A DNA stretch of 64,000 nt from a bacterium HR15 (GTDB taxonomy: Bacteria > Armatimonadota > Fimbriimonadia > Fimbriimonadales > GBS-DC): assembly GCA_002898555.1 (NCBI GenBank), contig BEHR01000002.1:9898-73897 (forward strand), written 5' to 3'. The notes under the pieces are model-generated. The model was not told the DNA's origin and ran no database searches. It worked only from the letters and a program-made list of their open reading frames with translations. Both the position numbers and the translations under genes were made by a program. The stretch's first letter is position 1, and the number at the start of each line of letters is the position of its first letter. Below are positions 12,554-63,469 of this stretch, piece by piece.

Positions 12554-12606
12554 TGAAATTTTTTCTCTGGGGTACCCAGCGCAGCGGGGTCAGAGAAAAA
12601 ATTTCA
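12554..12606 (+). repeat. 53-bp palindromic element (family A)
   Basis: 16-bp perfect inverted arms TGAAATTTTTTCTCTG / CAGAGAAAAAATTTCA. Confidence 0.95.
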
Positions 12607-12640
12607 GATTGGTCTGGCTGGCTCAACTGAGACACGCACG

Positions 12641-13396
12641 ATGAAAGCAGCTCTTGTGCAACAGGTGGAGAAGTGCATTCGGCAAGGTAAGATGCGGCGT
12701 GCAATCCGCTTACTGCGTCAAGCTGCGGACGCGGGCGAAACTCCATCGCTCTGCTACCGCAAGCTGGCGGAACTCTATCGGATGCAACGGCAATACCAGC
12801 GTGCCATCTGGGCACTGCGCCAAGCCATGCGCCACACGACCGACCGTGACCCGCTACGCACGCTGCTGATCGAGGTCATGATGGAAAGTGGCAATTGGGA
12901 CGGCGCGGTGCAGGAATGCCGCCGCTGGCTGCGCGAATCGCCCGACCACCCGGTACCGCTGGAGCATCTTATGGACGCCTACTGGCGCCGAATGGAGTTT
13001 CAGCAAGCGCTGGAATTTGCCAATCGGCTGGTACAACTGCAGCCATCCTCGCCCCATTACCGGTTGCGTCGCGCACGCTTGCTGGATGATATGGGACGCC
13101 GCGCACAAGCGGTGGAAGAGTATCAACGGCTTGTCACGGATATGGACGCGCCCATCGAGGTCGTTTTCCTGGCGCAGATCGAGCTGGAACGGCTGGATCA
13201 ACAGCAGCTGGAGGTGCTGATGCCCTTGTTGATGGAAGACCCTGCCTTCCGCCTGGAGTTCATGCGCGACCCTGTCAAAGCGGTGCGTCAGCGCGGCTTT
13301 TGCTTCAGCGCCGCCGGCGAAGAGATGCTTGCCTACCTCCCTGAAGAGATGCGCCAGATGGGTGATCAGGCGAAGCGCTATGGCAGCTATTCCTGA
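12641..13396 (+). CDS. tetratricopeptide repeat protein
   Basis: helical repeats with A..L...P spacing. Confidence 0.75.
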   Translation: MKAALVQQVEKCIRQGKMRRAIRLLRQAADAGETPSLCYRKLAELYRMQRQYQRAIWALRQAMRHTTDRDPLRTLLIEVMMESGNWDGAVQECRRWLRESPDHPVPLEHLMDAYWRRMEFQQALEFANRLVQLQPSSPHYRLRRARLLDDMGRRAQAVEEYQRLVTDMDAPIEVVFLAQIELERLDQQQLEVLMPLLMEDPAFRLEFMRDPVKAVRQRGFCFSAAGEEMLAYLPEEMRQMGDQAKRYGSYS

Positions 13397-14231
13397 AGTG
13401 CTTCAACGGCTGCGCCACGCGCTTGGCAAGCGCACGCTGGTGATGGGCGTCCTGAACCTGACGCCCGACAGCTTCTACGACGGCGGGCGATACACCACGC
13501 TGGAACGCGCGCTTGCCCGCGCCGAGCAGATGATTGCCGAGGGGGCAGATATTCTTGACATCGGGGGCGAATCGACGCGCCCCGGCTCTGAGCCCGTGCC
13601 GATGGACGAAGAGCTGCGCCGTACCCTTCCCGTCATCGAAGCGATTGCCTCACGCTCCGACATCGCCCTCTCCATCGATACTACCAAGAGCGAGGTGGCG
13701 CGGCGCGCTTTGCAAGCCGGCGCCCATATCGTGAACGACATCAGCGGCATGACCTTTGACCCCCACATGCCCGAAGTGGTGGCAGAAGCAGGCGCACTCG
13801 CAATCCTGATGCATATCAAGGGCACGCCCAAAACAATGCAACAGAATCCCACCTATGATGATGTGGTGCGCGAAGTGCGCGATACTCTGGCGCAACACGC
13901 CGAACGCGCCCAGCAAGCAGGCATCCCGAAGGAGCATATCTGGCTCGATCCGGGCATCGGCTTCGGCAAAACGCTGGCGCATAACCTCCAATTGCTGCGC
14001 CATTTGCCCGACCTGAAGGCACTGGGCTATCCGGTGCTGGTGGGCACTTCGCGCAAGTCCTTTATCGGGCTGATTCTGGGTGGATTGCCCCCTGAAGAGC
14101 GTCTGGAGGGCACTTTGGCGACGCTCGCGCTCGCCGTGGCTTGGGGCGCCGACGCCGTGCGCGTGCACGATGTGAAGGAAGCAGTACGCGCCGTCAAGGT
14201 CGCCGACGCCCTCGTGCGTGGGTTATCCTGA
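13380..14231 (+). CDS. folP: dihydropteroate synthase
   Basis: MGVLNLTPDSFYDGG, GGESTRPG, DPGIGFGK, SRKSF, RVHDV. Confidence 0.97.
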   Translation: MAAIPEVLQRLRHALGKRTLVMGVLNLTPDSFYDGGRYTTLERALARAEQMIAEGADILDIGGESTRPGSEPVPMDEELRRTLPVIEAIASRSDIALSIDTTKSEVARRALQAGAHIVNDISGMTFDPHMPEVVAEAGALAILMHIKGTPKTMQQNPTYDDVVREVRDTLAQHAERAQQAGIPKEHIWLDPGIGFGKTLAHNLQLLRHLPDLKALGYPVLVGTSRKSFIGLILGGLPPEERLEGTLATLALAVAWGADAVRVHDVKEAVRAVKVADALVRGLS

Positions 14232-14236
14232 TGCGT

Positions 14237-15358
14237 TCAGTCGCAGCGCCGTCCGAAGTTGAACAGCACAATCAGCAGGTCCGTGTCGTCTACAACCCCA
14301 TCGCCGTTCACATCGCCTTCCACATGGCAGCGTCCCGTATCCAGCAGGAAGCCCTCCCAGCGCCGTGTCGCCGCGTTATAGCCCTCGCCCACGATGTAGC
14401 GTCCATTCGGGGAGATGGCATAGGCGGTGCGTAGAAGGGAACCACCTACCACAAGGCAGGCGTAGACCTCGTTGAGGTCCTCCAGGCCACGCGCGGCGGT
14501 CCAGCGAAAGGCGCGAAGCCCAAACCCTGGGCGTTCTGTCCCACCAACCACGATCGCGCCATCGGCAGACGCGCCGTAGGCGACGCTTTCGTTCCCACCA
14601 AGTGTGCCAAGATCCTGCATCCCGCCCGCCGCTGTCCAGCGAAAGGCGTGAACATGACCATTGGCGGTGCTTGCCCTTCCGATGACGACCGCGCCGTTCG
14701 CCGAAACGCCACGCGCATCGCTCCAATTGCCACCGAGCGTGCCGAGGTCCTGCATTCCGCCCGCGGCGGTCCAGCGGAAGGCACGCGCCTGACCATTGGC
14801 GTTGTCTGCCCGTCCGACTGCCACCGAACCATCGGCAGAGACACCATAGGCAACGCTGGCATTCCCTCCAAGGGTACCAAGATATTGCAGTCCTTCTGTA
14901 GCGGTCCAGCGAAAGGCATGTCCACGACTACCAACCACAACCGAGCCATCGGCAGAGACATCATAAGCTGCACCGCCATCGCTGAGCCATTGCATTCCGT
15001 CCGCTTGCGTCCAGCGAAACGGCACAACATCTCCACCAACCACCACGGCGCCATCCGATGACACGCCGTGGGCAATTAACCACTGACCCAGATCCTGGGT
15101 GCCGGTGCTTGTCGTCCAGCGGAAGGCGTGAGGGACTTCCTGACCATAAAACATGGAGTAGATTGCACCCACGACCACCGAACCATCGGCGGACACAGCG
15201 TAGGCGATGCTGCCGGGGGATGTACTGCCGAGGGAGCCAAACCATCGCAGGGTTTGGGCTTGGAGCGAGTTCGTGCCGAGAACCAGTCCCAGCGTTCCGA
15301 GAGCAACCAGCTTTGTAAGCGCGATCAGTCGCGCACGCCACCGCTTGAATTGTATCAT
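14237..15358 (-). CDS. secreted HAF-repeat protein with C-terminal dockerin-like tag
   Basis: repeated A.GVSADGSVVVG / HAFRWT..GMQDLGTLGG; signal peptide; GDVNGDGVVDDTDLLIVLFNFG. Confidence 0.88.
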   Translation of the reverse strand: MIQFKRWRARLIALTKLVALGTLGLVLGTNSLQAQTLRWFGSLGSTSPGSIAYAVSADGSVVVGAIYSMFYGQEVPHAFRWTTSTGTQDLGQWLIAHGVSSDGAVVVGGDVVPFRWTQADGMQWLSDGGAAYDVSADGSVVVGSRGHAFRWTATEGLQYLGTLGGNASVAYGVSADGSVAVGRADNANGQARAFRWTAAGGMQDLGTLGGNWSDARGVSANGAVVIGRASTANGHVHAFRWTAAGGMQDLGTLGGNESVAYGASADGAIVVGGTERPGFGLRAFRWTAARGLEDLNEVYACLVVGGSLLRTAYAISPNGRYIVGEGYNAATRRWEGFLLDTGRCHVEGDVNGDGVVDDTDLLIVLFNFGRRCD

Positions 15359-15534
15359 CTCTGACCTCCCGTATCCGAAAGGGGCATCGCGAATCGCTCA
15401 TTAGGCGCGATCCACGCCTGATCCTTTCATACCAATTATACACCAAATGGGCTTTAAAATAAGTTTGCCCTGACTGGCTGCCACACCCGGCAAAGCGTGA
15501 CCCCGTGCTGGAGATCGAGGGGTATACTAAGAAT

Positions 15535-17328
15535 ATGCGACTGTACGGGACAGGGTTGATTGTGGGGCTATTCCTGTGGACAAGTGCAACGGCTCAACTG
15601 CCCGATTTAAAATTCCCCGCCCGATTCGTGATGGACCGTAAGGCATATACGCCCGGCTCTCATGGGAAAGGGTTGCTCCTGCTGGAAATCCCTGCACCCT
15701 ACCATGTGAACGCCAACCCCGCTTCTGAAGACTATCTGATCCCGACCGAACTGCGGTTCGAGAAGAGCAACACCTTCAGCGAACTGAAGGTGGAGTACCC
15801 TGCCGCCATCGAGAAAGCCTTCGAATTTTCAGGGGGCAAGCCGCTCAAGATTTACGAGGGACGAGTGCTGGTTAAATTTCAACTGAAGCTGGCGCCCACC
15901 GTCAAGCCGGGCACACTGAACCTGCCTGTCACCCTGCGCTACCAAGCGTGCGACGACAAGGCGTGCTACCCGCCCCAGCGACTAAAACTCACGCTAAGCC
16001 TCACGATTGCCTCGAAAAACGGCGCCCTCAATCCGGAGTACGAGCGTCTGTTGAAGGAAGGGGAGACAAACACGGGTCGCAAACTGAAGGAGTATTCCAG
16101 CGCGGCAGGTGGCTTTGCAGGCTTTGTGGAGGAACAGTTTCGTCAGGGGAGATGGTTCCTGTTCGTGGGCGTTCTCTATGTGGGTGGACTGGCGCTGAAC
16201 CTGACACCCTGCGTGTTGCCGTTGATTCCTATCACGCTGGGCTTTTTCTCGTTGCAGGCGCGTGGTCAGCGTGGGCGGCGCGTGGCACTCAGCGCGCTCT
16301 ATGCTCTGAGTATGGCAGCCATCTATGCCCTGCTGGGCACGATCGCTGCGCTGACGGGTAAAGCGTTCGGCTTTCAGTTCCAAAACCCCCTTGTGACAGG
16401 TGTGCTGGTCGTGTTGCTGGTGCTATTTGCGCTCTCCCTGTTCGGGGTGTACAAGTTTCAGCCGCCACCTGCCCTTATGCAGTATATCGGTGCGCGTCAG
16501 GGCTGGCTCGGCGCGATCATGATGGGCTGTCTGGCGGGGGTCGCTGCCGCGCCTTGCATCGGCCCTGTGATTGCCGCGCTCATCCCGATTGTGGCAGCGC
16601 TGGCGAACCCAACCGTGGGCTTCCTCTTGTTCCTCGCGCTGGGGCTGGGACTGGGCACGCCTTACTTCGTGCTGGGACTGTTCTACGAAAAGCTCCAGAA
16701 CCGCATGCCGCGCTCTGGTGAGTGGACGATTCTGGTGGAGCGACTGTTCGGTGTGTTGCTGTTGTCCGCCGCGCTCTTTTTTGCCCGCAGCTTGATGTCG
16801 CCCAAGCTGTACGCGATGGCGTGGTTGCTGTTCTTTGCGCTGGTGGCAATCTACTTCTTTGCCTTCGAGCGGCGCGAGATTACCCAACCGCGTGTGGTGC
16901 GCTTTAAACAGGCGTTGGGTGTGCTTTTTTTGCTGTTCGCGCTCAATAACGGCTACTCGTTGCTGCGCCCCAAGGTCCATATTCGCTGGGAACCCTATTC
17001 CGAAACGCGGCTGGAGCAGGCGGTTCGTGAGCGCAAACCCGTGATCATCGATTTCACGGCATCTTGGTGTCAGGCATGCACGGAGCTGGAGGAATATACC
17101 TACACCCATCCACGCGTCGTGCGCGAATCGGAACGCTTTGTGCGCTTGGTGGTGGACGCCACGCGCGAGGATGACCCGAATGTACAGCGCATTCTAAAAA
17201 AGCATGCGGTGGTCGGCTTGCCAACGGTGATTTTTATCGGCTCGGATGGGCAGGAACGGCGCGACCTGCGCCTGACCGGTTTCGAACCCCCCGACGCCTT
17301 TCTGAAACGCTTGCAGCAGGTACACTGA
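15535..17328 (+). CDS. dsbD: DsbD-family thiol:disulfide interchange protein
   Basis: YQAC...CYPP, LTPCVLPLIP, APCIGP, DFTASWCQAC. Confidence 0.88.
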   Translation: MRLYGTGLIVGLFLWTSATAQLPDLKFPARFVMDRKAYTPGSHGKGLLLLEIPAPYHVNANPASEDYLIPTELRFEKSNTFSELKVEYPAAIEKAFEFSGGKPLKIYEGRVLVKFQLKLAPTVKPGTLNLPVTLRYQACDDKACYPPQRLKLTLSLTIASKNGALNPEYERLLKEGETNTGRKLKEYSSAAGGFAGFVEEQFRQGRWFLFVGVLYVGGLALNLTPCVLPLIPITLGFFSLQARGQRGRRVALSALYALSMAAIYALLGTIAALTGKAFGFQFQNPLVTGVLVVLLVLFALSLFGVYKFQPPPALMQYIGARQGWLGAIMMGCLAGVAAAPCIGPVIAALIPIVAALANPTVGFLLFLALGLGLGTPYFVLGLFYEKLQNRMPRSGEWTILVERLFGVLLLSAALFFARSLMSPKLYAMAWLLFFALVAIYFFAFERREITQPRVVRFKQALGVLFLLFALNNGYSLLRPKVHIRWEPYSETRLEQAVRERKPVIIDFTASWCQACTELEEYTYTHPRVVRESERFVRLVVDATREDDPNVQRILKKHAVVGLPTVIFIGSDGQERRDLRLTGFEPPDAFLKRLQQVH

Positions 17329-17329
17329 T

Positions 17330-18002
17330 CCACCCATCCGATGTGTTAGTCCTGTCCGAACTTCCTAACCGCTCACCTTGCCTGTTATCGGTAAAATAAC
17401 GAATTCGCGTGTACGATCTATGCAGGAAAGAACTCAGGTTATCATTTGATAAAGGATCGGGTCTCGTTGCCCCTCCTGTGCTTCTCCAAGTATCTGCAAG
17501 GATAAAGTAAGCATCATCAAGATACTGTGGTATAGGTTCATAAAGTCTGCCGCCAGGCAGCGCCATAATCAAGACAGTATCACCTGCTTGCGGAAAGCTC
17601 TGACGTTCCAGAACACGCAACTGGTTAGCAGGAAGACTGGAGATAGTATATACTAGTGAGCGAACAAGCTGATCGGGAGTGGGGGTATCAAAATGGAGAC
17701 GCCCTGACACATTTGCCAGACGTGGTTGCCTATCATGATAGTATCCTGCTAAATCGTCCATGAAAGATGGCAGGAAGGCGTATCGCCCGAAACGAGTCAT
17801 GCGGTCTTCTGGAATTTGAATCACTACCGTGTGCTGTCCCAACGAAAGCTTTTCAGGCGGTACATTAACACGCCAGATCTCTTGATTAGCAGGATCTACC
17901 ACACGGAAGATGCCAGAGGAAGCCCCGCGACTAACAGACCTGACGAGGTTGTGCCGGCAGGTGAGGTTTAGCCATGCGCCCTATGACCGTTCTACCAAAC
18001 AT
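17330..18002 (-). pseudogene. lower-GC remnant of an unknown gene
   Basis: strong RBS (GGAGGTGAG) and ATG at 18002 closes after 23 codons; a different frame is open from about 17902 and runs into dsbD; AT-richer than flanks. Confidence 0.45.
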
Positions 18003-18182
18003 TGCTCACCTCCACTTTTGGTTTCTGCTCAGTGTGCTATCTGCTTATATTATAGCACATTGAAAGGGGGTTTTTCAAGGGGAAAAGGGCTGGGGGTGAA
18101 GGCTGAAAGCGAATTTTCGAACAGCCTCGAACAGCATCGCCTCAGAGGAACATCACGGCGACTGCCGAAAATCGAAAGCGAG

Positions 18183-18848
18183 ATGAGCCTCGTGACCCTG
18201 GAAATGGTGCGCAACGACCCTACCGTGCGTACCTACATTCGAGCAGCGAACGAAGCATTGAGCGCGATGGGCTATACGGAACATGGCTTGCGCCATGCGG
18301 GCATTGTCGCGAATAACGCGCGTCGCCTCTGCCTCAAACTGGGCTATACCGAACGCCAGGCGGAGCTGTCCGCGATTGCCGGCTTTCTGCACGATGTGGG
18401 CAATGTCATCGCACGCGACCACCATGCCCAAACAGGCGCGCTCATCGCTTTCCATCTGCTGAGCCAGATGGGCATGCCAGCGGAGGAACTTGCCATTATC
18501 ATCAGCGCGATTGGAAACCATGAGGAAGCCTCTGGCTACCCCGTCAACTACGCGGCAGCGACCGTCATTCTGGCAGACAAGTCCGATGTGCATTTCTCGC
18601 GCGTGCAAAACCCCCATCGCGACCAGTTCGATATTCACGATCGGGTCAATTTTGCGACACAGCGCTCGCGCCTGCGCGTGTTCCCCAAAGAACGCATTAT
18701 CGAACTCAACTTGGAGATTGACACAAGCGTTGCCAGCTTGATGGAGTATTTCGAGATTTTTCTGGAGCGCATGGTGATGTGCCGCCGCGCAGCGGACGCG
18801 CTTGATTGCCGATTCCATTTAACAGTCAACGGCTCGCCCATCGGCTAA
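18183..18848 (+). CDS. HD-domain phosphohydrolase
   Basis: GYTEHGLRHA, FLHDVGN, AIGNHEE, LADKSDVH. Confidence 0.88.
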   Translation: MSLVTLEMVRNDPTVRTYIRAANEALSAMGYTEHGLRHAGIVANNARRLCLKLGYTERQAELSAIAGFLHDVGNVIARDHHAQTGALIAFHLLSQMGMPAEELAIIISAIGNHEEASGYPVNYAAATVILADKSDVHFSRVQNPHRDQFDIHDRVNFATQRSRLRVFPKERIIELNLEIDTSVASLMEYFEIFLERMVMCRRAADALDCRFHLTVNGSPIG

Positions 18849-18946
18849 GGACTGAACATTTGCCCCCTGCTCTCGTCTAACTGGGTGGCAGGGACATCCT
18901 GCCCACATGGGCAGATGTGCCTGACTACTGGAAGGAGGGATGTCTG

Positions 18947-19462
18947 ATGCGTAAACTGATGTGGCTGGCTGTACTGACGCTGGCGAGCGCTATGGCGATG
19001 GCACAGACCTGTGTCGTCGAGGGCGCGTTTGGCGCAGGGGCTGCGGGTATGCCCGATGCGGACCACCCCAATGCCTTCTTCGGGCTGAATGTCGTCCACG
19101 CCGTCTGTGGCGATCGTGAATTTCAAGCCGGCGCGTTCCGCTTCGCAACCCGCCAGGAGAACCGCCTCATTGAGATTCAGATGGTGCGCCTGGCACGGCT
19201 GGAAGTGGATGTGGAACATCATGCGGCTGCCTTCGCGGGGCCGGCGGTGATGACCATCCGCACGCGCGAGGGCATGCGCCATGTGCGCGGCATAGTGCGT
19301 GTGCAAGTGCGTGATAACCGCCCACGCGACAGCGAGGAGGGCGATCCCGACGCAATCGCGGTGCAGTTCTTTGTGCCCGATCGTGAAGATCCCGTGTTCA
19401 CTTATCGGGGTGTGGTGCGCCGCGGTGACATCCTCGTGTTTCATCACGAGCGATCGCGCTGA
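18947..19462 (+). CDS. secreted hypothetical protein
   Basis: RBS AAGGAGG; signal peptide MRKLMWLAVLTLASAMAMA. Confidence 0.75.
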   Translation: MRKLMWLAVLTLASAMAMAQTCVVEGAFGAGAAGMPDADHPNAFFGLNVVHAVCGDREFQAGAFRFATRQENRLIEIQMVRLARLEVDVEHHAAAFAGPAVMTIRTREGMRHVRGIVRVQVRDNRPRDSEEGDPDAIAVQFFVPDREDPVFTYRGVVRRGDILVFHHERSR

Positions 19463-19491
19463 TGCTTCGCCATGCGCGAAACTTGTAGTGG

Positions 19492-19532
19492 TTCTACCCC
19501 CCTCCCCAACGCTTTGGGAGAGGGGGGTAGAA
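19492..19532. repeat. GC-rich inverted repeat (REP-like or terminator hairpin)
   Basis: TTCTACCCCCCTCCCCAA-CGCT-TTGGGAGAGGGGGGTAGAA. Confidence 0.6.
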
Positions 19533-19596
19533 TTTCAGCAGCCCGAACCGAAGTTGAACAACATTAAGGTATGATACACAAAGCGAGGGCAAAAGC

Positions 19597-20424
19597 GTGT
19601 TTCTGGTGCTGGTAGGGCTTACTCTCTTGGGCGCGACGAGTGGGGTGCTGGGCGCGTTTGCCCTGTTGCGTCGCAAAGCGTTGCTCAGTGATACATTCGC
19701 GCATGCTACTTTGCCCGGCGTCTGCCTCGCTTACTTGCTGGGGGGCAAACAGATGGGCTGGCTGCTTGCAGGCGCGTTTATTAGCAGTCTGCTCAGTGTC
19801 GGCTGGGTCTCAGTGATCACGCACCGCACACGCCTCAAGGAAGACGCTGCCCTCGCGCTGACCCTCTCGGTCTTTTTCGGGTTTGGGATGGTGCTATTGA
19901 CAGGCATCCAACGCTGGGGCGATGGATATCAAAGCGGGTTGGATCGCTTCCTGTTTGGTCAGGCGGCTGCGCTGCTGCCTCACGAGGTTGGCTATCTGGC
20001 GACGGCTTGCCTTCTCATCCTGCTCGTGGTGGGTGCGTTGTTCAAGGAGTTCACCCTGATGTGCTTCGATCGGGACTATGCCCTTGCCATCGGACTGCCT
20101 GTGCGCTGGCTGGATGCATTGCTGATGGGGCTGATCGCGCTGATGGTGGTGCTGGGCTTGCAGAGCGCGGGCGCATTACTGATGGTGGCGTTGATGATTA
20201 CGCCGGCAGCGGCCGCGCGCCTGTGCACACATCGGCTCAGTCTGATGATTTGGCTGGCTGCTCTGTTTGGCATGCTCTCGGCAGCGGGTGGTGTGCTGAT
20301 GAGCGCGCTGTATGGACGCCTGCCCACCGGACCCGTGATGGTGCTGATTGCGAGCGCGCTTTTCGCGGTAGCATTTCTCTTCAGGTATACTGTGCGCGGT
20401 GAGCGGCGATGGCAAAGACCTTAA
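19597..20424 (+). CDS. Mn/Zn/Fe ABC transporter permease (TroC/MntC-like)
   Basis: ALLSDTFAHATLPG, LFGQAA, FKEF..MCFD, PTGP. Confidence 0.88.
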   Translation: MFLVLVGLTLLGATSGVLGAFALLRRKALLSDTFAHATLPGVCLAYLLGGKQMGWLLAGAFISSLLSVGWVSVITHRTRLKEDAALALTLSVFFGFGMVLLTGIQRWGDGYQSGLDRFLFGQAAALLPHEVGYLATACLLILLVVGALFKEFTLMCFDRDYALAIGLPVRWLDALLMGLIALMVVLGLQSAGALLMVALMITPAAAARLCTHRLSLMIWLAALFGMLSAAGGVLMSALYGRLPTGPVMVLIASALFAVAFLFRYTVRGERRWQRP

Positions 20425-21158
20425 CGAAACGCATGCCCGAACTGCCCGACATTCCGCTGCTGGAAGGAGACGGCGAACCGTTGGAAAGCGATTGGCATGG
20501 GGTGCAAATTAGCCTGTTGGACGAACTGGTGCGCCAGTACTGGAAGGGGCGCAGCGACTTTTTCTGCGGCGGCAATATGTTCATCTATTACAGCCGTCGG
20601 CAAGCCGAAAGCGTGTGGGAGGGGCAACCCCTTTATAAGGGTTCTGACTTCTTTGTGGTCAAAGGCGTAGATGGCACGAAGCCACGCAAGTACTGGGCAG
20701 TTTGGGACGAAGAAGGTCGCTATCCTGATGTCATTATTGAACTGCTTTCACCCACGACCGCCAAGGAAGACAAAACCCACAATAAGGAACTCTATGAACG
20801 GGTCTTTAAAACCACTGAGTATTTCTGGTACGATGTGGATACGCGGGAGCTGAAAGGCTTCCGCCTGCACGACGGGCGTTACACGCCTATCGAGCCGAAC
20901 GAGCGCGACTGGCTCTGGAGTGTGGAACTCAATGCCTACCTGGGCCTCTGGGAAGGCGAGTATCGTGGGCGACGCTACCCATGGCTGCGCCTCTATACAG
21001 CCGATGGCGTGCTGGTCCCTACCAAGGAGGAACAGGCAGAAGCGGAACGCCAGCGGGCGGAAGCAGAACATCAACGGGCAGAAGCAGAACGCCAGCGAGC
21101 AGAGCGATTCGCACAGCGGTTGCGTGAACTGGGCATCGACCCGGAGACCGTGGCATGA
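20409..21158 (+). CDS. Uma2 family (DUF820) PD-(D/E)XK endonuclease
   Basis: PLESDWH, GNMFIYY, DFFVV, PDVIIELLSP.T, EYFWYD; AEAERQR tail. Confidence 0.9.
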   Translation: MAKTLTKRMPELPDIPLLEGDGEPLESDWHGVQISLLDELVRQYWKGRSDFFCGGNMFIYYSRRQAESVWEGQPLYKGSDFFVVKGVDGTKPRKYWAVWDEEGRYPDVIIELLSPTTAKEDKTHNKELYERVFKTTEYFWYDVDTRELKGFRLHDGRYTPIEPNERDWLWSVELNAYLGLWEGEYRGRRYPWLRLYTADGVLVPTKEEQAEAERQRAEAEHQRAEAERQRAERFAQRLRELGIDPETVA

Positions 21159-22045
21159 TCGATTGGCAAAGTACTCTATGGGTTTTACTGGCAGGTGGAC
21201 TTATGGCAACCAGCTGTGCGCTCATAGGTTGCTGGCTATTGTTGCGGCGAATGGCGCTGCTGGGGGATGCGATTAGCCATGCCGTGCTGCCTGGCATCGT
21301 GCTGGCGTTCTGGCTGACGGGCAGTCGCGCGACGCTGCCGATGCTGTTGGGGGCGGGAGTCGCAGGCTTGCTTAGCACAAGTATCATTCAGTGGCTGAGC
21401 CAGCGACGATTTGTTCAATCGGACGCTGCGATAGGCATCACTTTCACCGCCCTCTTTGCACTGGGCGTGCTGCTCATCTCGCGCTACAGTGGGCAGGTCG
21501 ATTTAGACCTCGATTGCGTGCTTTACGGCGAGATTGCTTATGTGCCGTGGGACCTTTGGATAATAGGCGACACGGTGCTGGGTCCGCGTGCGATCTGGAC
21601 ACTGAGTGGCGTGTTGCTTATCACTATCCTGTTCACCACGGGGTTGTATAAAGAGCTGCTGGTCAGCACTTTTGACCCGGTTTATGCGCAGGCAGCAGGA
21701 ATTCCCACCCGCGCAATGTATCATTTATTAATGGCGGTGGTTGCCCTGGTGGTGGTTGCCAGCTTCGAGGTCGTGGGCGCGATCCTGGTGCTGGCGTTCC
21801 TTGTGGTTCCTCCGGCAACTGCGCTGTTGATTTCGCGCCGATTACCGATGATGATTCTCATGAGCGTGGTGTTTGGCTGGTTGGCGGTGCTGCTGGGCTA
21901 TATCGCTGCGCATCTGCTAAATGTGTCTATTACGGGGTCGATGGCGACCGCAAGCGGGATTCTATTTGCTTTGACGCTCCTGGCAACGGGGCTGCGAGCT
22001 GGTAAGGGCAGACCTGCCATTTCTGCCCAACGGATAGAAAGGTAG
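21155..22045 (+). CDS. Mn/Zn/Fe ABC transporter permease (TroD/MntD-like)
   Basis: ALLGDAISHAVLPG, DLDLDCVLYGEI, YKELLVSTFD. Confidence 0.88.
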   Translation: MIDWQSTLWVLLAGGLMATSCALIGCWLLLRRMALLGDAISHAVLPGIVLAFWLTGSRATLPMLLGAGVAGLLSTSIIQWLSQRRFVQSDAAIGITFTALFALGVLLISRYSGQVDLDLDCVLYGEIAYVPWDLWIIGDTVLGPRAIWTLSGVLLITILFTTGLYKELLVSTFDPVYAQAAGIPTRAMYHLLMAVVALVVVASFEVVGAILVLAFLVVPPATALLISRRLPMMILMSVVFGWLAVLLGYIAAHLLNVSITGSMATASGILFALTLLATGLRAGKGRPAISAQRIER

Positions 22046-22708: not shown

Positions 22709-22761
22709 TGAAATTTTTTCTCTGGGGTACTCCGCGCAGCGGGGTCAGAGAAAAAATTTCA
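22709..22761 (+). repeat. 53-bp palindromic element (family A)
   Basis: near-identical to 12554-12606. Confidence 0.95.
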
Positions 22762-30856: not shown

Positions 30857-30982
30857 GTGGGGCATACACCCAGGTCTGCCCCTACAAGGTTGTGGGATGG
30901 GGTGCAAGGGCGCACCTGCGTGTGCGCCCCCCTTCTGCCCCGATAACCCATCCTGTAGGGGCGCACCGATGTGTGTGTCCTA
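30857..30982. repeat. cluster of three GTAG-type REP-like palindromes
   Basis: GTGGGGCATACACCCAGGTCTGCCCCTAC; GCAAGGGCGCACCTGCGTGTGCGCCC; GTAGGGGCGCACCGATGTGTGTGTCC. Confidence 0.75.
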
Positions 30983-33133: not shown

Positions 33134-33206
33134 CAAAATTTCTTCTCCGGCACAGCAGCAACATTTTTCCTCTGACCCGCAAGGGTACTCTGGAGAAGAA
33201 AATTTG
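33134..33206 (-). repeat. variant family A palindromic element with an extra arm
   Basis: CAAAATTTCTTCTCC...CATTTTTCCTCTGACCC-GCAA-GGGTACTCTGGAGAAGAAAATTTG. Confidence 0.75.
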
Positions 33207-51435: not shown

Positions 51436-51477
51436 TGAAAATTTTCCTCCGGGCATGTGGGTCGGAGGAAACATTTG
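51436..51477 (+). repeat. degenerate family A palindromic element
   Basis: TGAAAATTTTCCTCCGGG...GGGTCGGAGGAAACATTTG. Confidence 0.6.
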
Positions 51478-53581: not shown

Positions 53582-54803
53582 CCTTCTCTGAGTGGGTCCA
53601 CATCATCACGGTCCGCAGCACGGCTTCACCACAGGTATAGAAGTGGGGCAGCAGTAGGCGTTCCTGGGGGGTGTGGATGGCGTCCGCCCCTGTGGGGAAC
53701 ACAAGGCACTGAATCCCGTGGGTGCTGAAGGCGTTGGCATCGGAGCCGCCTCCAGTGCGGGTGAGCTTCGCGTCGATGCCCAGCTCCTTCAGTGCGGCGA
53801 CGGCTGCCTTCACGATGGGCGCGTCGGGCGACACACGCACCGCATCGAAAGTTTTGCTGAAGGTCACTTCCACCTTGCCCTCATGCGCCTGCGCCACACG
53901 CTCGCAAATCTCGCGCCAGCGGTTCGCCAGCGATTCCACTCGCTTCGGGTCGAAGCTACGGAACTCGCCTATAAGTTTGACTCGGTCTGGCACGATATTC
54001 ATCGCTTGCCCCCCTTCAATGGTGCCGATGTTCGCGGTGGTCTCCTCGTCGAGGCGTCCCCACTCCATCTGCGCAATCGCCTTCGCTGCCATCTGGATCG
54101 CGTTGCGTCCCTTTTCAGGTTCCGCGCCTGCGTGCGCTGCGCGTCCATGAAAGACCACTTCGAATTTCCAGTGCGTGGGTGACTGCACGAAAACTTCATC
54201 GGGCACTTCTCTGCCATCGACCACCAACCCGTAGCGGGCTTTCAGCAGGCGGGCGTCGAAGGCTTTTGCGCCCAGCAAACCCTTTTCCTCACGGATACTG
54301 AACACCACCTCCAGCGGCGGATGGGGCAGGTTGCGCTCCTTGAGAGTTTGCAGCACCTCCAAGATGATGGCGACCCCTGCTTTATCGTCCGCGCCCAAGA
54401 TGGTGCGTCCATCGGTTTTTATCTCCTCTTTGGTACGCACGATTTGAATCCCTTTGGTGCTGGAAACGGTGTCCAGATGGGCGTTCAGCAACAGGGGAGG
54501 CGCACTGACCGTGCCTTTGAAACGCGCGAACACATTGCCGCCTGTGCCACCCAGTTGCTTGCTGGCGTCGTCGATATGCACGCTGTCCGCGCCCAGTTGA
54601 CGCAGCTTTTCCGCCACAAATTGACAAATGGCAGCCTCGTTTTCCGCGCCGCTGTCGATTTGCACAAGCTGAATGAACAGCTCCGTCATGCGCTCGTGAT
54701 TCAGCATCGGCTGGTGAGGTTGCGCCCCTGCATCTGAACAACCTATTGCCCAGCCGATAATCACCCCTATCAGCCACATGATCACCACCTTGTCGTGTCT
54801 CAT
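53475..54803 (-). CDS. M20 peptidase T-like protein with signal-peptide-like extension
   Basis: AHLDTV, LGADDKAG, EEKGL.G, AHAG, GGSDAN, IHT; RBS AAGGAGGTGA. Confidence 0.88.
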   Translation of the reverse strand: MRHDKVVIMWLIGVIIGWAIGCSDAGAQPHQPMLNHERMTELFIQLVQIDSGAENEAAICQFVAEKLRQLGADSVHIDDASKQLGGTGGNVFARFKGTVSAPPLLLNAHLDTVSSTKGIQIVRTKEEIKTDGRTILGADDKAGVAIILEVLQTLKERNLPHPPLEVVFSIREEKGLLGAKAFDARLLKARYGLVVDGREVPDEVFVQSPTHWKFEVVFHGRAAHAGAEPEKGRNAIQMAAKAIAQMEWGRLDEETTANIGTIEGGQAMNIVPDRVKLIGEFRSFDPKRVESLANRWREICERVAQAHEGKVEVTFSKTFDAVRVSPDAPIVKAAVAALKELGIDAKLTRTGGGSDANAFSTHGIQCLVFPTGADAIHTPQERLLLPHFYTCGEAVLRTVMMWTHSEKVNSAGARPLLGRTDADAPGGDTDRAVHPPGPSPAH

Positions 54804-54846
54804 TGGTTCACCTCCTTGCATATAGGATTTGTCTCTTTTAGTATCC

Positions 54847-55090
54847 TGAAATTTTTTCTCTGACCCAGCTTCGCTGAGTACCCCAGAGAAAAAATTTCAC
54901 CTGAACTTGCTCTCCCGTGGACACACCTGAAATTTTTTCTCTGACCCCACTGCGCGGAGTACCCCAGAGAAAAAATTTTTCCTGAAATTTTTTCTCTGAC
55001 CCCACTGCGCGGAGTACCCCAGAGAAAAAATTTTTCCTGAAATTTTTTCTCTGACCCAGCTTCGCTGAGTACCCCAGAGAAAAAATTTCA
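54847..55090 (-). repeat. cluster of four 53-bp family A palindromes (54847-54899, 54928-54980, 54983-55035, 55038-55090)
   Basis: copies 1 and 4 identical, copies 2 and 3 identical; 55-bp period for copies 2-4. Confidence 0.96.
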
Positions 55091-55094
55091 CTCG

Positions 55095-55544
55095 CTATTC
55101 GCTGCTCGCCTCGTCGCGGATCGCTTGGGCTGCGGTGCGCAGCACACCGTTTACGAAGCGACCCGACTGCGCTGTGCTGTATCTCTTGGCTAACTCCACC
55201 GCTTCGTTGACAATCACGCGTGCAGGCACTTCAGGTTGATAACGCAACTCATAAAGAGCCATTCGAAGGATGTTGCGGTCGATGACGGGCATTCGGTCTA
55301 AGGTCCAGCCCGATGCGAACTGCTCAATCAGTGGGTCTAACTCGGTGGCTTGATGGCTTAGCACCCCGTTCACCAGTTGGCGCATATATCGAGCGATGCC
55401 GGGTTCCAGTTGAGCGACCTCTAATGCCTCTTCGACGACCTCTTGGGGGTCGCGTTGTCCCACCTCAATCTGGTAGAGGGCGCGCAGTGCCCATTCGCGG
55501 GCGAGTCGTCGGGGTGAGACCTCGCGGGGTGGGTCGGGGTTCAT
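55095..55544 (-). CDS. nusB: transcription antitermination factor NusB
   Basis: RRLARE.AL..LYQ, W.LDRM..IDRNILR, NEAVELAK, FVNGVL. Confidence 0.95.
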   Translation of the reverse strand: MNPDPPREVSPRRLAREWALRALYQIEVGQRDPQEVVEEALEVAQLEPGIARYMRQLVNGVLSHQATELDPLIEQFASGWTLDRMPVIDRNILRMALYELRYQPEVPARVIVNEAVELAKRYSTAQSGRFVNGVLRTAAQAIRDEASSE

Positions 55545-56914
55545 TGGACAACACCTCCGATGGGCGCATAGCCACGCAAGAAGCGTGGCACGAACGGTGT
55601 CGATACGCGCCCCTGCAGGAATTCGGGCGTCTGCACCAGGCGCAGCAAGAAGTCGCGCGTGGTCTGCACGCCCTCGATGCGCACCTCATGCAGCGCACGG
55701 GTCAAACGCGCGACCGCCTCCTCACGGCTGGGCGCATAGGCGATAATCTTCGCCAGCAGCGGGTCATAGTAGGGCGGGATGCTATAGCCTGTGTAGAGAT
55801 GGCTGTCCACGCGGATCCCTGGACCGCCCGGTGGCGTCCATTCGCTCAATCGCCCGGTAGAGGGAGTAAAGTCATGTTCGGGGATTTCGGCAGTCAGGCG
55901 CACCTCGATGGCATGTCCGCTCAACCGAATGTCGCTCTGCTTGAACGGCAGTCGTTCGCCCGCCGCGATGCGTATCTGCCACTGCACGATGTCGATGCCC
56001 GTCACCTGCTCCGTCACAGGATGTTCGACTTGCAGGCGAGTGTTCATCTCGATAAAGTAGAAGTTGCCGTTGCTGTCCATCAGGAACTCGACGGTGCCAG
56101 CGTTCTGGTAGCCCACAGCACGGGCCACTTTGATGGCAGCCTCACCTAATGCGCGGCGTGTCACCTCATCTACATGGGGGGCAGGAGCCTCCTCTACCAT
56201 TTTCTGATGGCGCGGGGTCTGTAAAGAGCACTCTCGCTCAAAGAGGTGCAACACATTCCCATGCGAATCGGCAAGCACTTGCACTTCGATATGGCGCGGT
56301 TCGGGAATATACTTTTCCAGGTAGACATCGGGCGAGCCGAATGCAGCCTGCGCTTCGGACTGGGCGATGCGCAGGGCGGGCAGCAACTCCTCCTCGGTGT
56401 TCACACGCCGAATTCCTCGTCCGCCTCCGCCTGCTGCCGCTTTAATCAACAGCGGGAAACCAATTTGGGAGGCGGCACGCAGTGCTTCCTCTTCTGAACG
56501 GATGGCGTCGGGCGTGCCAGGCAGTACGGGCACGCCTGCCTGCTGCGCGATTTTGCGGGCGAGTGCCTTATCGCCCATCTGGGCAATCGCACTGTGGGGT
56601 GGGCCGATGAAGCGGATGCCCTGCGACTCGCATGCCTCGGCGAAGCTGCTGCACTCCGATAGATAGCCATAGCCCGGATGGATGGCTTCCGCTTCGGTGA
56701 TGAGCGCCGCCATCAGAATATGAGGAATATTTAGATAACTTTCGCTACTGGGCGGCGGACCGATGCAAACCGCCTCATCCGCCCAGTGCACATGCAGGGC
56801 ATCCCGATCGGCTTCCGAATAGACCGCGACCGTGCGAATGCCCATCTCGCGGCACGCGCGGATGATGCGCACCGCTATCTCGCCCCGATTCGCTATCAGG
56901 ATTTTGTTGAACAT
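55541..56914 (-). CDS. accC: acetyl-CoA carboxylase biotin carboxylase subunit
   Basis: MFNKILIANRGEIA, HPGYG, GGGGRG, EMNTRLQVEHPVTE. Confidence 0.95.
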   Translation of the reverse strand: MFNKILIANRGEIAVRIIRACREMGIRTVAVYSEADRDALHVHWADEAVCIGPPPSSESYLNIPHILMAALITEAEAIHPGYGYLSECSSFAEACESQGIRFIGPPHSAIAQMGDKALARKIAQQAGVPVLPGTPDAIRSEEEALRAASQIGFPLLIKAAAGGGGRGIRRVNTEEELLPALRIAQSEAQAAFGSPDVYLEKYIPEPRHIEVQVLADSHGNVLHLFERECSLQTPRHQKMVEEAPAPHVDEVTRRALGEAAIKVARAVGYQNAGTVEFLMDSNGNFYFIEMNTRLQVEHPVTEQVTGIDIVQWQIRIAAGERLPFKQSDIRLSGHAIEVRLTAEIPEHDFTPSTGRLSEWTPPGGPGIRVDSHLYTGYSIPPYYDPLLAKIIAYAPSREEAVARLTRALHEVRIEGVQTTRDFLLRLVQTPEFLQGRVSTPFVPRFLRGYAPIGGVVQ

Positions 56915-57220
56915 AACCCGTCCTGAAGTGTACCCCAGAAGATAGGAGGTTCTCCCCTCTACAATATGGCTCTTCCTCTGTGTAAAGTGTCTCACGGCGC
57001 AATGCTTCGGTAGGCGGTGCCTCGTTGGTTGCGTATCTTTCAGCCCATCGCAGCAAGCACGCGCTTGCTCATTGTCCTTATGGAGGTGTGACGGTTCACT
57101 TATGGATAGTCAAAGTGTGTCAACAATCACAGGCACAATGTCTTGCGTAGCAAGGCTTCCACCGATGGGGAGCATTCAGGCAAGTATACCCCAACCAAGT
57201 TTTCCCCATCAGGTGTGCCG

Positions 57221-57577
57221 CTAATAGCTCCTATGTCCTGGTGTGGAACATCGCACCGTACCCGTGTTCGGGTCGTACTGATAAGGCTGACCCGATTCGG
57301 GGCAGACCAGCATTTGGTCGGGCAACCCCAGCTCCTTGAGTGTGGCAGGTAACCCTTCTTCAGAACCCTGCCGCATTTGGATGGCGGTACGAATCTGGTT
57401 CAAGTTATTGCGGCATTCTACGCCGCGTGCCGCTTGCTTGGTCTCCGTGACACGGCTGACAGGCGGTGCCCCAGGCATAGTACCCGCCTGTCTTCCTGTG
57501 CCATAATAGAGCCATACCACCACTAAAATCGCCAATATCGCCACTGCTGCCAGTACACCCACTAATCGCATGCTCAT
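57221..57577 (-). CDS. pilin-like membrane-anchored protein
   Basis: N-terminal TM; CRNNLNQIR, CP.SG.PY.Y, C..PGH resemble the pilin at 32759; no GFTL motif. Confidence 0.6.
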   Translation of the reverse strand: MSMRLVGVLAAVAILAILVVVWLYYGTGRQAGTMPGAPPVSRVTETKQAARGVECRNNLNQIRTAIQMRQGSEEGLPATLKELGLPDQMLVCPESGQPYQYDPNTGTVRCSTPGHRSY

Positions 57578-57603
57578 CTCCTCGTGAGGCGAGTCGTTTT
57601 TTG

Positions 57604-57640
57604 GGCGAGTGGCGGGTAGTGAGTAGAATCTACTCGCTAT

Positions 57641-57660
<20 letters not shown>
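57604..57660. repeat. heptamer-periodic inverted repeat (family C) overlapping the ALDH stop
   Basis: GGCGAGT GGCGGGT AGTGAGT AGAATCT ACTCGCT ATTCACC ATTCGCC ACTCGCT. Confidence 0.85.
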
Positions 57661-61794
<4,134 letters not shown>

Positions 61795-61815
61795 ACCGAT
61801 GCTCGAAACTCATAC

Positions 61816-61944
61816 TGGAGGGCGAGCGTCCCCGCGAGCCGACATGCGTGACGAAGACAATCCTGTCTTAGTGCGGCGTCGGTTGGAATGGCTCGGCGGG
61901 AACCTCGCCCTCCAGATTCGGCTCGGCGGGAGCCTCGCCCTCCA
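61816..61944. repeat. BIME-like REP cluster (family B): one inverted and two tandem copies
   Basis: TGGAGGGCGAGCGTCCCCGCGAGCCGA (61816-61842) and GGCTCGGCGGGARCCTCGCCCTCCA x2. Confidence 0.88.
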
Positions 61945-61996
61945 AAATGCCCAAGCGTGAATGCCTACCCATCTCCTTGAACTCCAGTTTTTAAAC

Positions 61997-62020
61997 AGCT
62001 GGGTCAGAGAAAAAATTTCA
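61997..62020 (+). repeat. half copy of the family A element
   Basis: AGCTGGGTCAGAGAAAAAATTTCA matches the right half of copies 54847 and 55038 (reverse complement). Confidence 0.88.
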
Positions 62021-62061
62021 TGACGGAAGAACCTCTCACGCGACGCGAGAGGCTTAGGGCG

Positions 62062-63327
62062 TTAAAAATAGTCCATTGGGCGCAAGCAGGGAGAGCGAGC
62101 GGGGAACAGTTGATCCAGAGTGTCTATCAAAGCAGGGGGCGCATCCAGCAGCTCACGCACTGCGAGTTCGCTTGCACTGAAAGTGCCCATCGTGAGCAGT
62201 GCGAGCGAGCGCATATTGAGGCGCACGATGGGCAAGCCCTCATGCCCTCCCCGCGCCACATGCCAGCCCTTTGAATCCGCAAACACCGTGTACACCCCTG
62301 TGTTTGCCTCAATCTGGGGATCGTGAACCGCCATGCAGAAGGGCTGCACTCCCTCGGTAGGGCATGCCCTCAACAGCCGCTGCAACAGGTCATGTGGATG
62401 CACCACGCGCCACATGAAGCCGGGCATTATCTCCCATCGCAGGAACGGCTCTCCCGGATCGCGGTGTGTGGGTGTCCAGCCCGTCAGTTGCAGCGATGCC
62501 AGTTCATCAGGTGTTCCGCTAAACTCGACCTGACGCACATGTTCCTCGTTCGCCGCGAGCCAGCCTATCAACGCATGCCGTGCCCGCTCCGTAAGCCAAA
62601 GCATCTCACGCACACGGAGCACCCAGCCCGCTTCGACAAAGTCGTAAATCAAATAACCTTCCAGCGCCCCGTTATGGCAATAAACGAGCTTGTGGCGAAA
62701 GTTCCACAACAGATAGCTCCAGCGCAACTCGTCGCGCAGCAGGCGTCCGGTGGCAGGGCGCACTCGCTGTTCGTACAGATGGCGGATGGCAGGATAGTCC
62801 GTTTCAAGGGCACGCCGCACCCCCTCAGGTGGGAAAGGCGGCAGCAGCAGGGGAGCTACGCGCACGCGCATCAGGCTTCCCACCACCTCCCAGCCCAGCG
62901 GACGATAGAAATCGAGATCGAACGCTTGCAGCGCTGCTCCCGGGATGCCCTGCGTATGGAGCGCGTTCAGCACGGCGGTCAGGAGGCGGCGCGCATAGCC
63001 GCGCCGACGGTATTGCGGGTGGGTCGCTACCCCAGCGATGCCCACACAGGGAACCAACTGCTCGCCGATCCACATCTGCAAGGGGATAACGGTCAGAATA
63101 GAAACCAGCGTTCGAGATGCTCCCTCACCTACCCACAACCCCCACCGCTGATTGTGGGGATAATAAGGGTCGTTGTAGAAATAAGGGCGTGCCGTTGCCA
63201 GATCAAAGCCAAAGCATTGACAGAGCAGGCGCAAAAACGCCTCCTCATCCTCCAGGATTTTCTTCTCCGACCCAGACGGGTACCCCGGAGAAGAAAATCC
63301 TGCTGGCGAGATCATCTCAATTTGCAC
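62062..63327 (-). CDS. Eis-like GNAT acetyltransferase with SCP2 C-terminal domain (start could be 63360 or 63315)
   Basis: GIAGVATHPQYRRRGYA, FY..LGW, C-terminal LF......DYF. Confidence 0.9.
   Translation of the reverse strand: MQIEMISPAGFSSPGYPSGSEKKILEDEEAFLRLLCQCFGFDLATARPYFYNDPYYPHNQRWGLWVGEGASRTLVSILTVIPLQMWIGEQLVPCVGIAGVATHPQYRRRGYARRLLTAVLNALHTQGIPGAALQAFDLDFYRPLGWEVVGSLMRVRVAPLLLPPFPPEGVRRALETDYPAIRHLYEQRVRPATGRLLRDELRWSYLLWNFRHKLVYCHNGALEGYLIYDFVEAGWVLRVREMLWLTERARHALIGWLAANEEHVRQVEFSGTPDELASLQLTGWTPTHRDPGEPFLRWEIMPGFMWRVVHPHDLLQRLLRACPTEGVQPFCMAVHDPQIEANTGVYTVFADSKGWHVARGGHEGLPIVRLNMRSLALLTMGTFSASELAVRELLDAPPALIDTLDQLFPARSPCLRPMDYF
63253..63302 (-). repeat. family A variant inserted in frame in the GNAT gene
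   Basis: 17-bp perfect arms CAGGATTTTCTTCTCCG / CGGAGAAGAAAATCCTG around the GACCC...GGGTACCCC core. Confidence 0.88.
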
Positions 63328-63426
63328 GGGCAGTCGCCGCAGTTTTAACAGGTTCATCAACCTTCTCCAAGATTTTTTTTTTTTTCGACAGAGGGATGGC
63401 TATTCCTGTGATGTCGGAGGATGAAC

Positions 63427-63469
63427 CAAAATTTTTTCTCTGGGGTACTGGGTCAGAGAAAAAATTTTG
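63427..63469 (+). repeat. short (43-bp) family A palindrome
   Basis: CAAAATTTTTTCTCTGGGGTACTGGGTCAGAGAAAAAATTTTG. Confidence 0.92.

Follow-up and report, generated by a model that had tools for sequence, protein, structure and literature searches.

A lineage-specific family of self-nesting, AT-rich palindromic elements in the genome of the bacterium HR15, probably mobilized in trans

Introduction

Small palindromic repeats are common in bacteria, and for most of them neither the movement nor the origin is known. The 64,000-nt window analyzed here, that is, the whole stretch from position 9,898 to 73,897 of contig BEHR01000002.1 of the hot-spring bacterium HR15 (Armatimonadota; GenBank assembly GCA_002898555.1), raises this question anew, as a preliminary description made from its letters alone had pointed to about 11 copies or part-copies of a palindrome of about 50 bp. 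What are these elements, and how did they come to lie where they are? As described below, they belong to a lineage-specific family detected in none of the other genomes searched, and they are likely to be non-autonomous hairpin elements moved in trans, probably as single-stranded DNA (ssDNA). The family is a new one of a familiar kind of tiny mobile DNA, and is unusual in its self-nesting, its sharp insertion point and the absence of a recognized enzyme.

Results and discussion

Architecture of the elements

The draft genome consists of 3.04 Mb in 72 contigs (58% G+C, 98% complete), and the window lies within contig 2. A scan of the whole genome for arm half-sites with up to 2 mismatches detected 422 half-sites in 172 loci, and these half-sites, when read as brackets, were paired into 140 elements. 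A repeat discovery based on 11-mers was dropped, as it was too permissive at 58% GC. The elements were revealed to be 46-51 bp long and to comprise AT-rich, perfectly complementary arms of 16-17 nt around a conserved asymmetric core, GGGT + ACCC-NNNN-GGGT (16 nt). Four arm types recur genome-wide, namely A (TGAAATTTTTTCTCTG), B (CAAAATTTTTTCTCTG), C (CAAAATTTTCTTCTCCG) and D (CAAAATTTTCTTTTCCG). In subfamilies B, C and D the core has 16 nt, GGGTACCC-NN-CTGGGT, and in subfamily A it has 21 nt, GGGTACTC-N-GCG-N-AGC-N-GGGT; among the 86 elements with an intact core, 53 had 16 nt, 29 had 21 nt and 4 had other lengths, and the inner 15-nt arms of the same elements were perfect in 61 cases, with one mismatch in 19 and two in 6. 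The inner hairpin GCGAAGC or GCGCAG(C/T), which the preliminary description had assigned to the full copies, was recovered in 23 of the 29 cores of 21 nt (GCGCAGC in 15 and GCGAAGC in 8), d(GCGAAGC) being an unusually stable hairpin. As a trait of the family, however, it did not hold, because the heptamers are confined to subfamily A and 53 of the 86 intact-core elements have a 16-nt core without them.

When folded as ssDNA, either strand gives a blunt-ended hairpin, in which the arm stem is followed by a bulge of 4 nt (GGGT on one strand, ACCC on its complement) and by a small inner hairpin, with fold energies of -14 to -22 kcal/mol and z-scores of -7.4 to -9.8. In subfamily A, the strand reading GGGTAC folded 1.2-2 kcal/mol better than its complement owing to two pairs of the inner stem, one of which is T.G in 18 of the 19 distinct copies, and the other C-G in 9, A-T in 6 and an A.G mismatch in 4.

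The proposal that arm sequences vary from copy to copy but match each other within every copy was confirmed by pair counts and a shuffle control, both computed with a purpose-written script on the genome sequence. Across 55 distinct elements genome-wide, the arms paired at 96.3% of positions as compared with 79.3 +/- 1.7% when the right arms were shuffled among copies, a level as high as that observed being reached in none of 2000 shuffles, and at the six variable arm positions the values were 94% and 51%, respectively. What separates the arm subfamilies is a set of substitutions that occur in mirror image on the two arms, together with a single indel mirrored in the same way. Counted from the core, position 2 was T-A in 49 elements and C-G in 36, position 5 C-G in 69 and T-A in 13, position 8 T-A in 52 and C-G in 34, and position 15 A-T in 51 and G-C in 27, while position 16 showed three pair types and position 12 is shifted by a one-base indel on both arms. 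These covarying changes define a handful of subfamilies, and hence represent few events rather than dozens. Since non-Watson-Crick pairs were rare and without preference for G.T, the constraint on the arms looks like that of a palindrome in DNA rather than that of a stem in RNA.

Elements within elements

The most informative feature of the family, which the preliminary description did not describe, is nesting. As many as 45 of the 140 paired elements sit within the core of another element, the combinations being A/B in D (17), C in A/B (13), D in A/B (8), D in C (4), A/B in A/B (2) and A/B in C (1). Two layers were found at 40 loci, three at 8 and four at 2, and one four-layer nest, on contig 26, forms a single long interrupted hairpin of -57.4 kcal/mol (z -10.7). 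The guest interrupts the host core at one fixed site, GGGTAC(C/T)C^, 8 nt past the left arm. As these 45 elements are accommodated in roughly 0.1% of the genome, the nested site is preferred by a factor of hundreds.

The nests were tested by excising the innermost elements in silico at their C...G termini and rescanning the genome, which uncovered 34 further elements, of which 31 appeared in round two and 3 in round three. The restored host cores were canonical in 12 of 34 cases at offset 0, as against 0 of 34 and 0 of 33 when the excision was narrowed on each side (offsets -1 and -2), and 9 of 35 and 5 of 38 when it was widened (+1 and +2). Ten of the 34 restored cores measured 21 nt, as in intact A elements (for example, GGGTACTCAGCGCAGCTGGGT). 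Perfect arms were observed in 18 of the 34 hosts and in 61 of the 86 innermost or solitary elements, and the lower proportion in the hosts fits their being older. Loci with a lone inner arm also occur, such as L_D-K-L_B-K-H-R_D; these may have arisen when sequence was lost between the direct repeats of 8 nt that result from nesting, and nested copies would then decay by slippage or deletion between such repeats into half elements.

The left core halves of guest-bearing hosts often read GGGTAGCC (13 cases; for example, the filled D hosts at contig 15: 60034-60128), a form that was never seen in intact cores and that removes the palindrome GGTACC. This hexamer occurs 397 times in the genome against about 950 expected from a rough composition estimate.

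A GTAG REP as the older host

D elements are usually flanked by GTAGGGGCAGACCTGCGTG...TCTGCCCC, and these flanks, minus the insert, give a 9-bp GC-rich hairpin preceded by GTAG, that is, a repetitive extragenic palindrome (REP). The sequence of this REP is GTAGGGGCAGACCT(G/C)CGTG(T/C)CTGCCC, with 61 copies in the genome within 2 mismatches of the 26-nt consensus, one of which lies in the window at about 30860-30885 (contig 2: 40757-40782, - strand). There were 88 empty copies (up to 3 mismatches in 22 nt) versus 25-27 with an element at CGTG^TCTGCC, and removal of CAAAATTTT...AAAATTTTG restored the REP consensus exactly. This host repeat, GTAGGGGCAGACC..., is a REP by its GTAG tag and GC-rich imperfect palindrome. 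The preliminary description had set the elements apart from GC-rich GTAG REPs, which is correct as to their AT-rich, perfect arms but left out that the genome also has a GTAG REP whose loop hosts them.

Twelve of 24 other genomes of the family contained the GTAG REP, and none of 16 from other families of the order did. Filled REP loops were found in none of 28 family genomes with an exact pattern allowing a 28-58-nt gap, a pattern that also missed most filled copies in the present genome, and no intact RAYT (REP-associated tyrosine transposase) accompanying the GTAG REP was found. The REP is thus old and family-shared, and the AT-rich palindromes are newcomers using its loop; since the former is shared with relatives from which the latter are absent, the REP is the older of the two.

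Beside the GTAG REPs, further intergenic repeats were observed (for example, contig 3: 86168-86400), in which tandem CGGCTCGGCGGGAGCCTCGCCCTCCA units and CCCTCTCCCAGAGGGCGAGGGG hairpins form mosaics with the REPs.

Genomic placement and in-frame insertions

According to the 2219 genes called by a crude purpose-made open reading frame (ORF) caller, intergenic positions account for 111 of the 172 loci, a gene end is overlapped at 7, and the other 54 fall within a called gene. Among the last, 27 were within 150 nt of the start of the longest ORF, where the call is probably over-extended, 17 were single arms with 1-2 mismatches deep in genes, which are probably due to chance, 4 were near the 3' end, and 6 were multi-arm loci well inside confident ORFs. 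Besides extending ORF calls, the repeats break assemblies, and several contigs end inside them.

Three of the six multi-arm internal loci were compared with same-genus orthologues, the others being located at contig 2: 75982, contig 6: 12268 and contig 46: 5394, and all three proved to be in-frame insertions missing from the orthologues. A TPR-CHAT protein (933 aa; contig 62, copy at L045:717-763) has 17 extra residues, PSGFSSPGYPSESEKKI, relative to its 69% identical orthologues in two same-genus genomes (G001 and G002); a Helicase_C_2/DEAD helicase (714 aa; contig 9, copy at L044:1034-1083) has 16 extra residues, KIFLSDPDGYPGKENF, relative to orthologues of 81-82% identity; and an amidase (480 aa; contig 53, copy in L046) has 17 extra residues relative to orthologues of 87-88% identity. 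In the DNA, the insert of the helicase gene measures exactly 48 nt (AAAATTTT...AAAATTTT) between CCG^CCC without target duplication, and that of the CHAT gene measures 51 nt, its junction being ambiguous by 2 nt (CC); the element ends are therefore fuzzy by 1-2 nt. Only lengths divisible by three survive in genes. Conserved enzymes can accordingly be lengthened by 16-17 residues through such elements and not be destroyed. The element at window position 12554 is also missing from the orthologous spacer of 3 same-genus genomes, in which the spacers are too diverged (genes 78-83% identical) for a base-precise alignment.

RHS-repeat cassettes are the only multi-copy protein genes of the genome, with up to 11 paralogues (contigs 3, 6, 17, 21 and 30; for example, L007:1523-2149). 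D elements stand at the 5' boundary of orphan RHS cassettes, where a flank ending in ...CCTCCCCAACCA recurs before the element and GATGAGGGCGTAGATGG after it.

Restriction to a single genome

With the arm-plus-core pattern, 103 matches were obtained here and none in any of 40 relatives, of which 3 belong to the genus, 21 others to the family and 16 to the order. The bare core had 62 matches in this genome; among 400 genomes sampled from the phylum, none had more than one, and 18 had a single match, a reversed-pattern control yielding similar singletons. In wider collections, which may lack entries for this genome or for very close ones, the core-plus-arm-end pattern had no match in 185,579 species genomes and a looser core/arm pattern had 2 single matches there, about the chance level; two patterns were not matched in metagenome contigs, plasmids gave no match, and viral contigs gave no true match, only 5 single partnerless arms as expected by chance. 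No Rfam family reached its gathering threshold anywhere in the window, and the matches below threshold were generic hairpins only (14-21 bits against cut-offs of 50-140). Nor was any description of this palindrome family, or of repeats in this phylum, found in literature searches. This distribution fits a recent origin or expansion of the family.

Proposed mode of movement

Elements of this family occur in four settings, i.e., spacers, genes (as in-frame survivors only), the GTAG REP loop and a fixed core phosphodiester of family members, into each of which they have inserted. They did so precisely, with little or no duplication of the target and in both orientations. The behavior, with both empty and filled sites, agrees with the non-autonomous element postulated in the preliminary description. 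In our view, a duplex of 46-51 bp cannot easily bring its ends together, and an ssDNA hairpin places both ends side by side, which favors a single-strand cut-and-join reaction. We therefore infer a single-stranded intermediate and a trans-acting enzyme, which would cut and rejoin the hairpin and would recognize its stem and bulged core in the way that the enzymes of RAYT and IS200/IS605 systems recognize theirs. A weak hint of the strand bias expected for single-strand transposition came from the B/C/D copies, whose core strand lay on the C-rich strand in 24 of 32 cases (24:8; p 0.007 before correction for 4 tests), the corresponding ratios being 13:9 for A and 23:17 for the REP, with local GC skew of the draft genome as a stand-in for replication direction.

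Several observations weigh against this interpretation. The junctions are irregular, as A hosts and REP hosts have 0 extra bases and D hosts retain a core of 17 or 18 nt after excision, i.e., 1-2 extra C. The guest was in the same orientation as the host in 18 cases and in the opposite one in 12. Some nests may have spread as whole composites, such as the 105-nt A[C] units that stand in tandem on contig 32, and the number of independent insertions would therefore be below 45. Outside repeats, the target sites had no higher hairpin potential than random spacers; overall, a stem of at least 6 bp was found in 12.5% of target sites against 2.4% of random spacers, the high scorers being REP hosts and tandem arrays. 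Unlike in IS200/IS605, no conserved tetranucleotide precedes the insertions, the left flanks ending in ...TACCC, ...TACTC, ...GCGTG, ...CGCCG and others. No insertion polymorphism was visible in one low-depth hot-spring metagenome, whose contigs (depth about 7-10), when compared with 14 kb of the window, break at the repeats.

The search for an enzyme weighs in the same direction. The preliminary description had noted none in the window, which holds, and none was recognized genome-wide either by Pfam searches with PF01797, PF01548, PF07282, PF01609, PF00665, PF00078 and PF01867 (Sigma70_r4 being covered via a single protein). IS110 (PF01548) and rve (PF00665) domains were absent from the genome, DDE_Tnp_1 (PF01609) gave weak or broken matches only, and the one TnpB gene had no elements nearby. 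The sole PF01797 match was a 251-aa fusion of Y1_Tnp and Sigma70_r4 (contig 10: 34195-34947, - strand; L001:1183-1938), in which HUH is replaced by Q-V-N (Q-V-H, Q-L-Q or Q-V-I in six relatives) and the tyrosine is kept; its gene is not flanked by repeats and is present as a full-length single copy in 23 of 24 family genomes without elements. These three properties, i.e., the degenerate HUH, the lack of flanking repeats and the conservation in element-free relatives, indicated that it is not a RAYT for these elements, so that the link to RAYT transposases drawn in the preliminary description was not supported. The protein may be a domesticated DNA-binding protein, and its transposase domain looks non-catalytic. 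Like arms lie 0.3-6 kb apart in 33 pairs, and of 19 genes scanned between them, 18 were ordinary cellular genes, one had no Pfam match and none was a transposase; the Pfam-less product reads as a repeat protein.

RT-Cas1 or Cas1 was considered as an integrase and rejected, as the CRISPR repeats are unrelated, the spacers are shorter (periods 65-78 nt) and Cas1 integration duplicates the repeat. The RT-Cas1 fusion (901-aa open frame; contig 35: 917-2455, - strand) lies by a CRISPR array, a second Cas1 is encoded at contig 12: 40596-41441, and at least 3 CRISPR repeat types occur on contigs 7, 12, 15, 16, 22, 25 and 35.

Alternative explanations

A bolder version of single-strand movement, to which we assign a low probability, is a self-nesting, hairpin-into-hairpin mobile DNA with no transposase of a known family, in which a blunt single-stranded hairpin of ~50 nt would be joined into the apex of another hairpin, 7-8 nt from the stem end, by a structure-reading host or novel enzyme. 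The HUH-less Y1-sigma4 protein is conceivable as a recruited hairpin binder in such a scheme. If true, this would amount to a novel way of transposing, with the target recognized from its shape, and would account for the Russian-doll growth of the nests as well as for the missing autonomous partner.

The elements could alternatively be selected cruciform or hairpin sites for a host protein of the nucleoid, replication or repair, or else a structured RNA, spread by recombination or gene conversion. The strongly conserved, asymmetric core, the perfection of the arms in 61 of 86 elements, the predominance of intergenic loci (111 of 172) and the T.G pair in 18 of 19 distinct A inner stems, which makes the GGGTAC strand the better folder, would all agree with this idea, and gene conversion between REP copies could move an insert from a filled to an empty REP. 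Gene conversion cannot, however, seed the unrelated unique sites and the three coding genes. The orientation of B/C/D copies relative to transcription was unbiased, with 15 copies in the same and 15 in the opposite direction between co-directional genes (12 and 3 in subfamily A, with many tandem copies), the arms do not tolerate the G.U-type pairs that an RNA stem would allow, and there was no Rfam match. The absence from all 40 relatives searched further argues that there is no conserved function. Taken together, these observations render a host-selected site unlikely.

In a third explanation, the elements would be ordinary MITEs (miniature transposable elements with inverted repeats), whose arms are the terminal inverted repeats of a lost or unassembled DDE-type insertion sequence (IS) and which moved by double-stranded cut and paste. 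The arms are indeed terminal inverted repeats, subfamily A ends in TG...CA, and the 1-2 extra C at the D-host junctions could be a very short duplication. Nevertheless, a target duplication of fixed length was not found, there being none at the helicase site or in A and REP hosts, and the length of 46-51 bp is below the 70-300 bp given for MITEs (PMC3733652) and is probably too short for the ends of a duplex to meet. A parent IS with the same ends was not found either, in a 72-contig draft that could hide it unassembled, repeats often being missing from drafts and several contigs ending inside elements; the 19 genes between like arms included no transposase, the multi-copy genes were the RHS cassettes, and neither an rve nor an IS110 domain nor more than weak or broken DDE_Tnp_1 was detected. 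We thus regard this origin as rather improbable.

Intrinsic terminators or mRNA-stabilizing hairpins, as some REPs are, can hardly account for the elements, for although these are stable hairpins in intergenic spacers and 54 of 97 classifiable intergenic loci lie between co-directional genes, the T run is inside the 5' arm and the A run in the 3' arm with no U tract after the stem on either strand, only 2 of the 49 B/C/D copies are between convergent genes as compared with 17 between divergent ones, and copies also occur inside coding genes, a pattern that argues against any strand-specific RNA role as well.

Relation to known systems and significance

By the membership criteria of the known families, the elements belong to none of them. 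Their nearest counterparts in behavior are REP/REPIN elements, REPs lying within longer palindromes, the very small nested repeats of Nostoc and, as regards the in-frame copies, the palindromic elements of Rickettsia. They resemble the REP/BIME/REPIN-RAYT systems in being short, high-copy palindromes that are mostly extragenic, lineage-specific and found in mosaics with other repeats, and a trans-acting enzyme working on single-stranded hairpins is the favored model for both. They differ in their AT-rich, perfect arms of 16-17 bp, a REP having a GC-rich imperfect stem and 20-40 bp, and in lacking a GTAG/CGTC tag at the stem foot, the conserved GGGT/GTAC lying in the core inside the arms. Furthermore, no RAYT was found, the elements insert into each other at a fixed core site, and the true GTAG REP of the genome is a separate, older family serving as a target. 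In Anabaena variabilis, Thermomicrobium roseum and Halothiobacillus neapolitanus, GTAG/CGTC REP units were described that occupy the center of a longer palindrome (Di Nocera et al. 2013, PMC3733652). The architecture of a hairpin inside a palindrome is shared with those cases, and is reversed here, where AT-rich palindromes lie in REP loops in up to four layers and the hosts are both empty and filled.

The small dispersed repeats (SDRs) of Nostocaceae (Elhai et al. 2008, Genome Res 18:1484) are comparable in behavior only, in that they, too, are mobile, very small and without a known enzyme. Insertion of one SDR into another also occurs; they reportedly measure 21-27 nt, against 46-51 nt here, and are not long perfect palindromes. 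SDRs are confined to Nostocaceae, and the HIP1 palindrome may serve SDR5 as its insertion site (PMC5861425). The Rickettsia palindromic elements (RPEs) are similar to the present family in the in-frame copies in protein genes, of which there are three cases here; there is no sequence relation, and most copies here are intergenic. RPEs are about 100-150 bp long. They are described as palindromic repeats in frame within functional protein genes (PMC3733652). With the peel-and-paste elements of IS200/IS605, the family has in common the absence of target duplication and the reliance on hairpin DNA. IS200/IS605 elements have separate subterminal hairpins at both ends, and their insertion takes place 3' of a tetra- or pentanucleotide that is fixed, whereas here the whole element is one hairpin, no fixed target sequence was seen and no active TnpA is present.

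The family is easy to read, as its copies are near-identical, each host type is available both empty and filled (the subfamily A core, the subfamily D core, the GTAG REP loop and three protein genes), and one phosphodiester of a 16-21-nt core is hit. It accordingly offers a clean case for how hairpins of 50 nt are cut and joined, in a 98%-complete genome with no transposase of the searched families, and a natural record of the order of events, with the REP first, followed by A, C, D and B.

Copies in the window

The 11 copies or part-copies noted in the preliminary description all hold on direct reading and in pattern and inverted-repeat scans (Table 1). The pattern GGGGTAC-N5-12-GGGTC had 7 matches in the window as compared with 0.02 expected, and none of 100 shuffles reached 7. 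The first element lies in a spacer between two + strand genes, with a DNA fold of -19.0 kcal/mol (z -8.6), and the four-copy array (54847-55090) is within a 273-nt spacer between two - strand ORFs.

Table 1. Elements and part-elements in the window, with arm starts and arm complementarity from the inverted-repeat scan
Feature	Coordinates	Strand	Arms and core	Inverted-repeat scan
Subfamily A element	12554..12606	+	16-nt arms TGAAATTTTTTCTCTG / CAGAGAAAAAATTTCA, 21-nt core GGGTACCCAGCGCAGCGGGGT	12554/12591, 16-17-nt arms, 100%
Subfamily A element	22709..22761	+	core GGGTACTCCGCGCAGCGGGGT	22709/22746, 16-17-nt arms, 100%
Degenerate half-nested copy	33134..33206	.	C-like outer arms (33134-33149 / 33191-33206) around a B-like left arm (33159-33174) and a core, ACCCGCAAGGGTACTC	33134/33192, 93%
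Degenerate short copy	51436..51476	.	core shortened to 11 nt	51438/51463, 86%
Subfamily A element, 1st of four-copy array	54847..54899	-	- strand core GGGTACTCAGCGAAGCTGGGT	54847/54884, 16-17-nt arms, 100%
Subfamily A element, 2nd of array	54928..54978	-	core GGGTACTCCGCGCAGTGGGGT	perfect 14-nt arms
Subfamily A element, 3rd of array	54983..55033	-	55-nt tandem copy of 2nd	perfect 14-nt arms
Subfamily A element, 4th of array	55038..55090	-	read from sequence and inverted-repeat scan	55038/55075, 16-17-nt arms, 100%
Right-half remnant	61996..62020	+	core end CAGCTGGGT and right arm CAGAGAAAAAATTTCA	
Subfamily C variant	63253..63302	-	17-nt arms CAGGATTTTCTTCTCCG, - strand 16-nt core GGGTACCCGTCTGGGT	63253/63286, 16-17-nt arms, 100%
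Subfamily B element	63427..63469	+	arms CAAAATTTTTTCTCTG, core shortened to 11 nt (GGGTACTGGGT)	63427/63454, 16-17-nt arms, 100%

Two unrelated hairpins were also observed in the window, one at 57605-57658 with 22-nt arms of 82% complementarity (GCGAGTGGCGGGTAGTGAGTAG...) and the other at 19492-19532 with 16-nt arms of 94% complementarity (TTCTACCCCCCTCCCC / GGAGAGGGGGGTAGAA).

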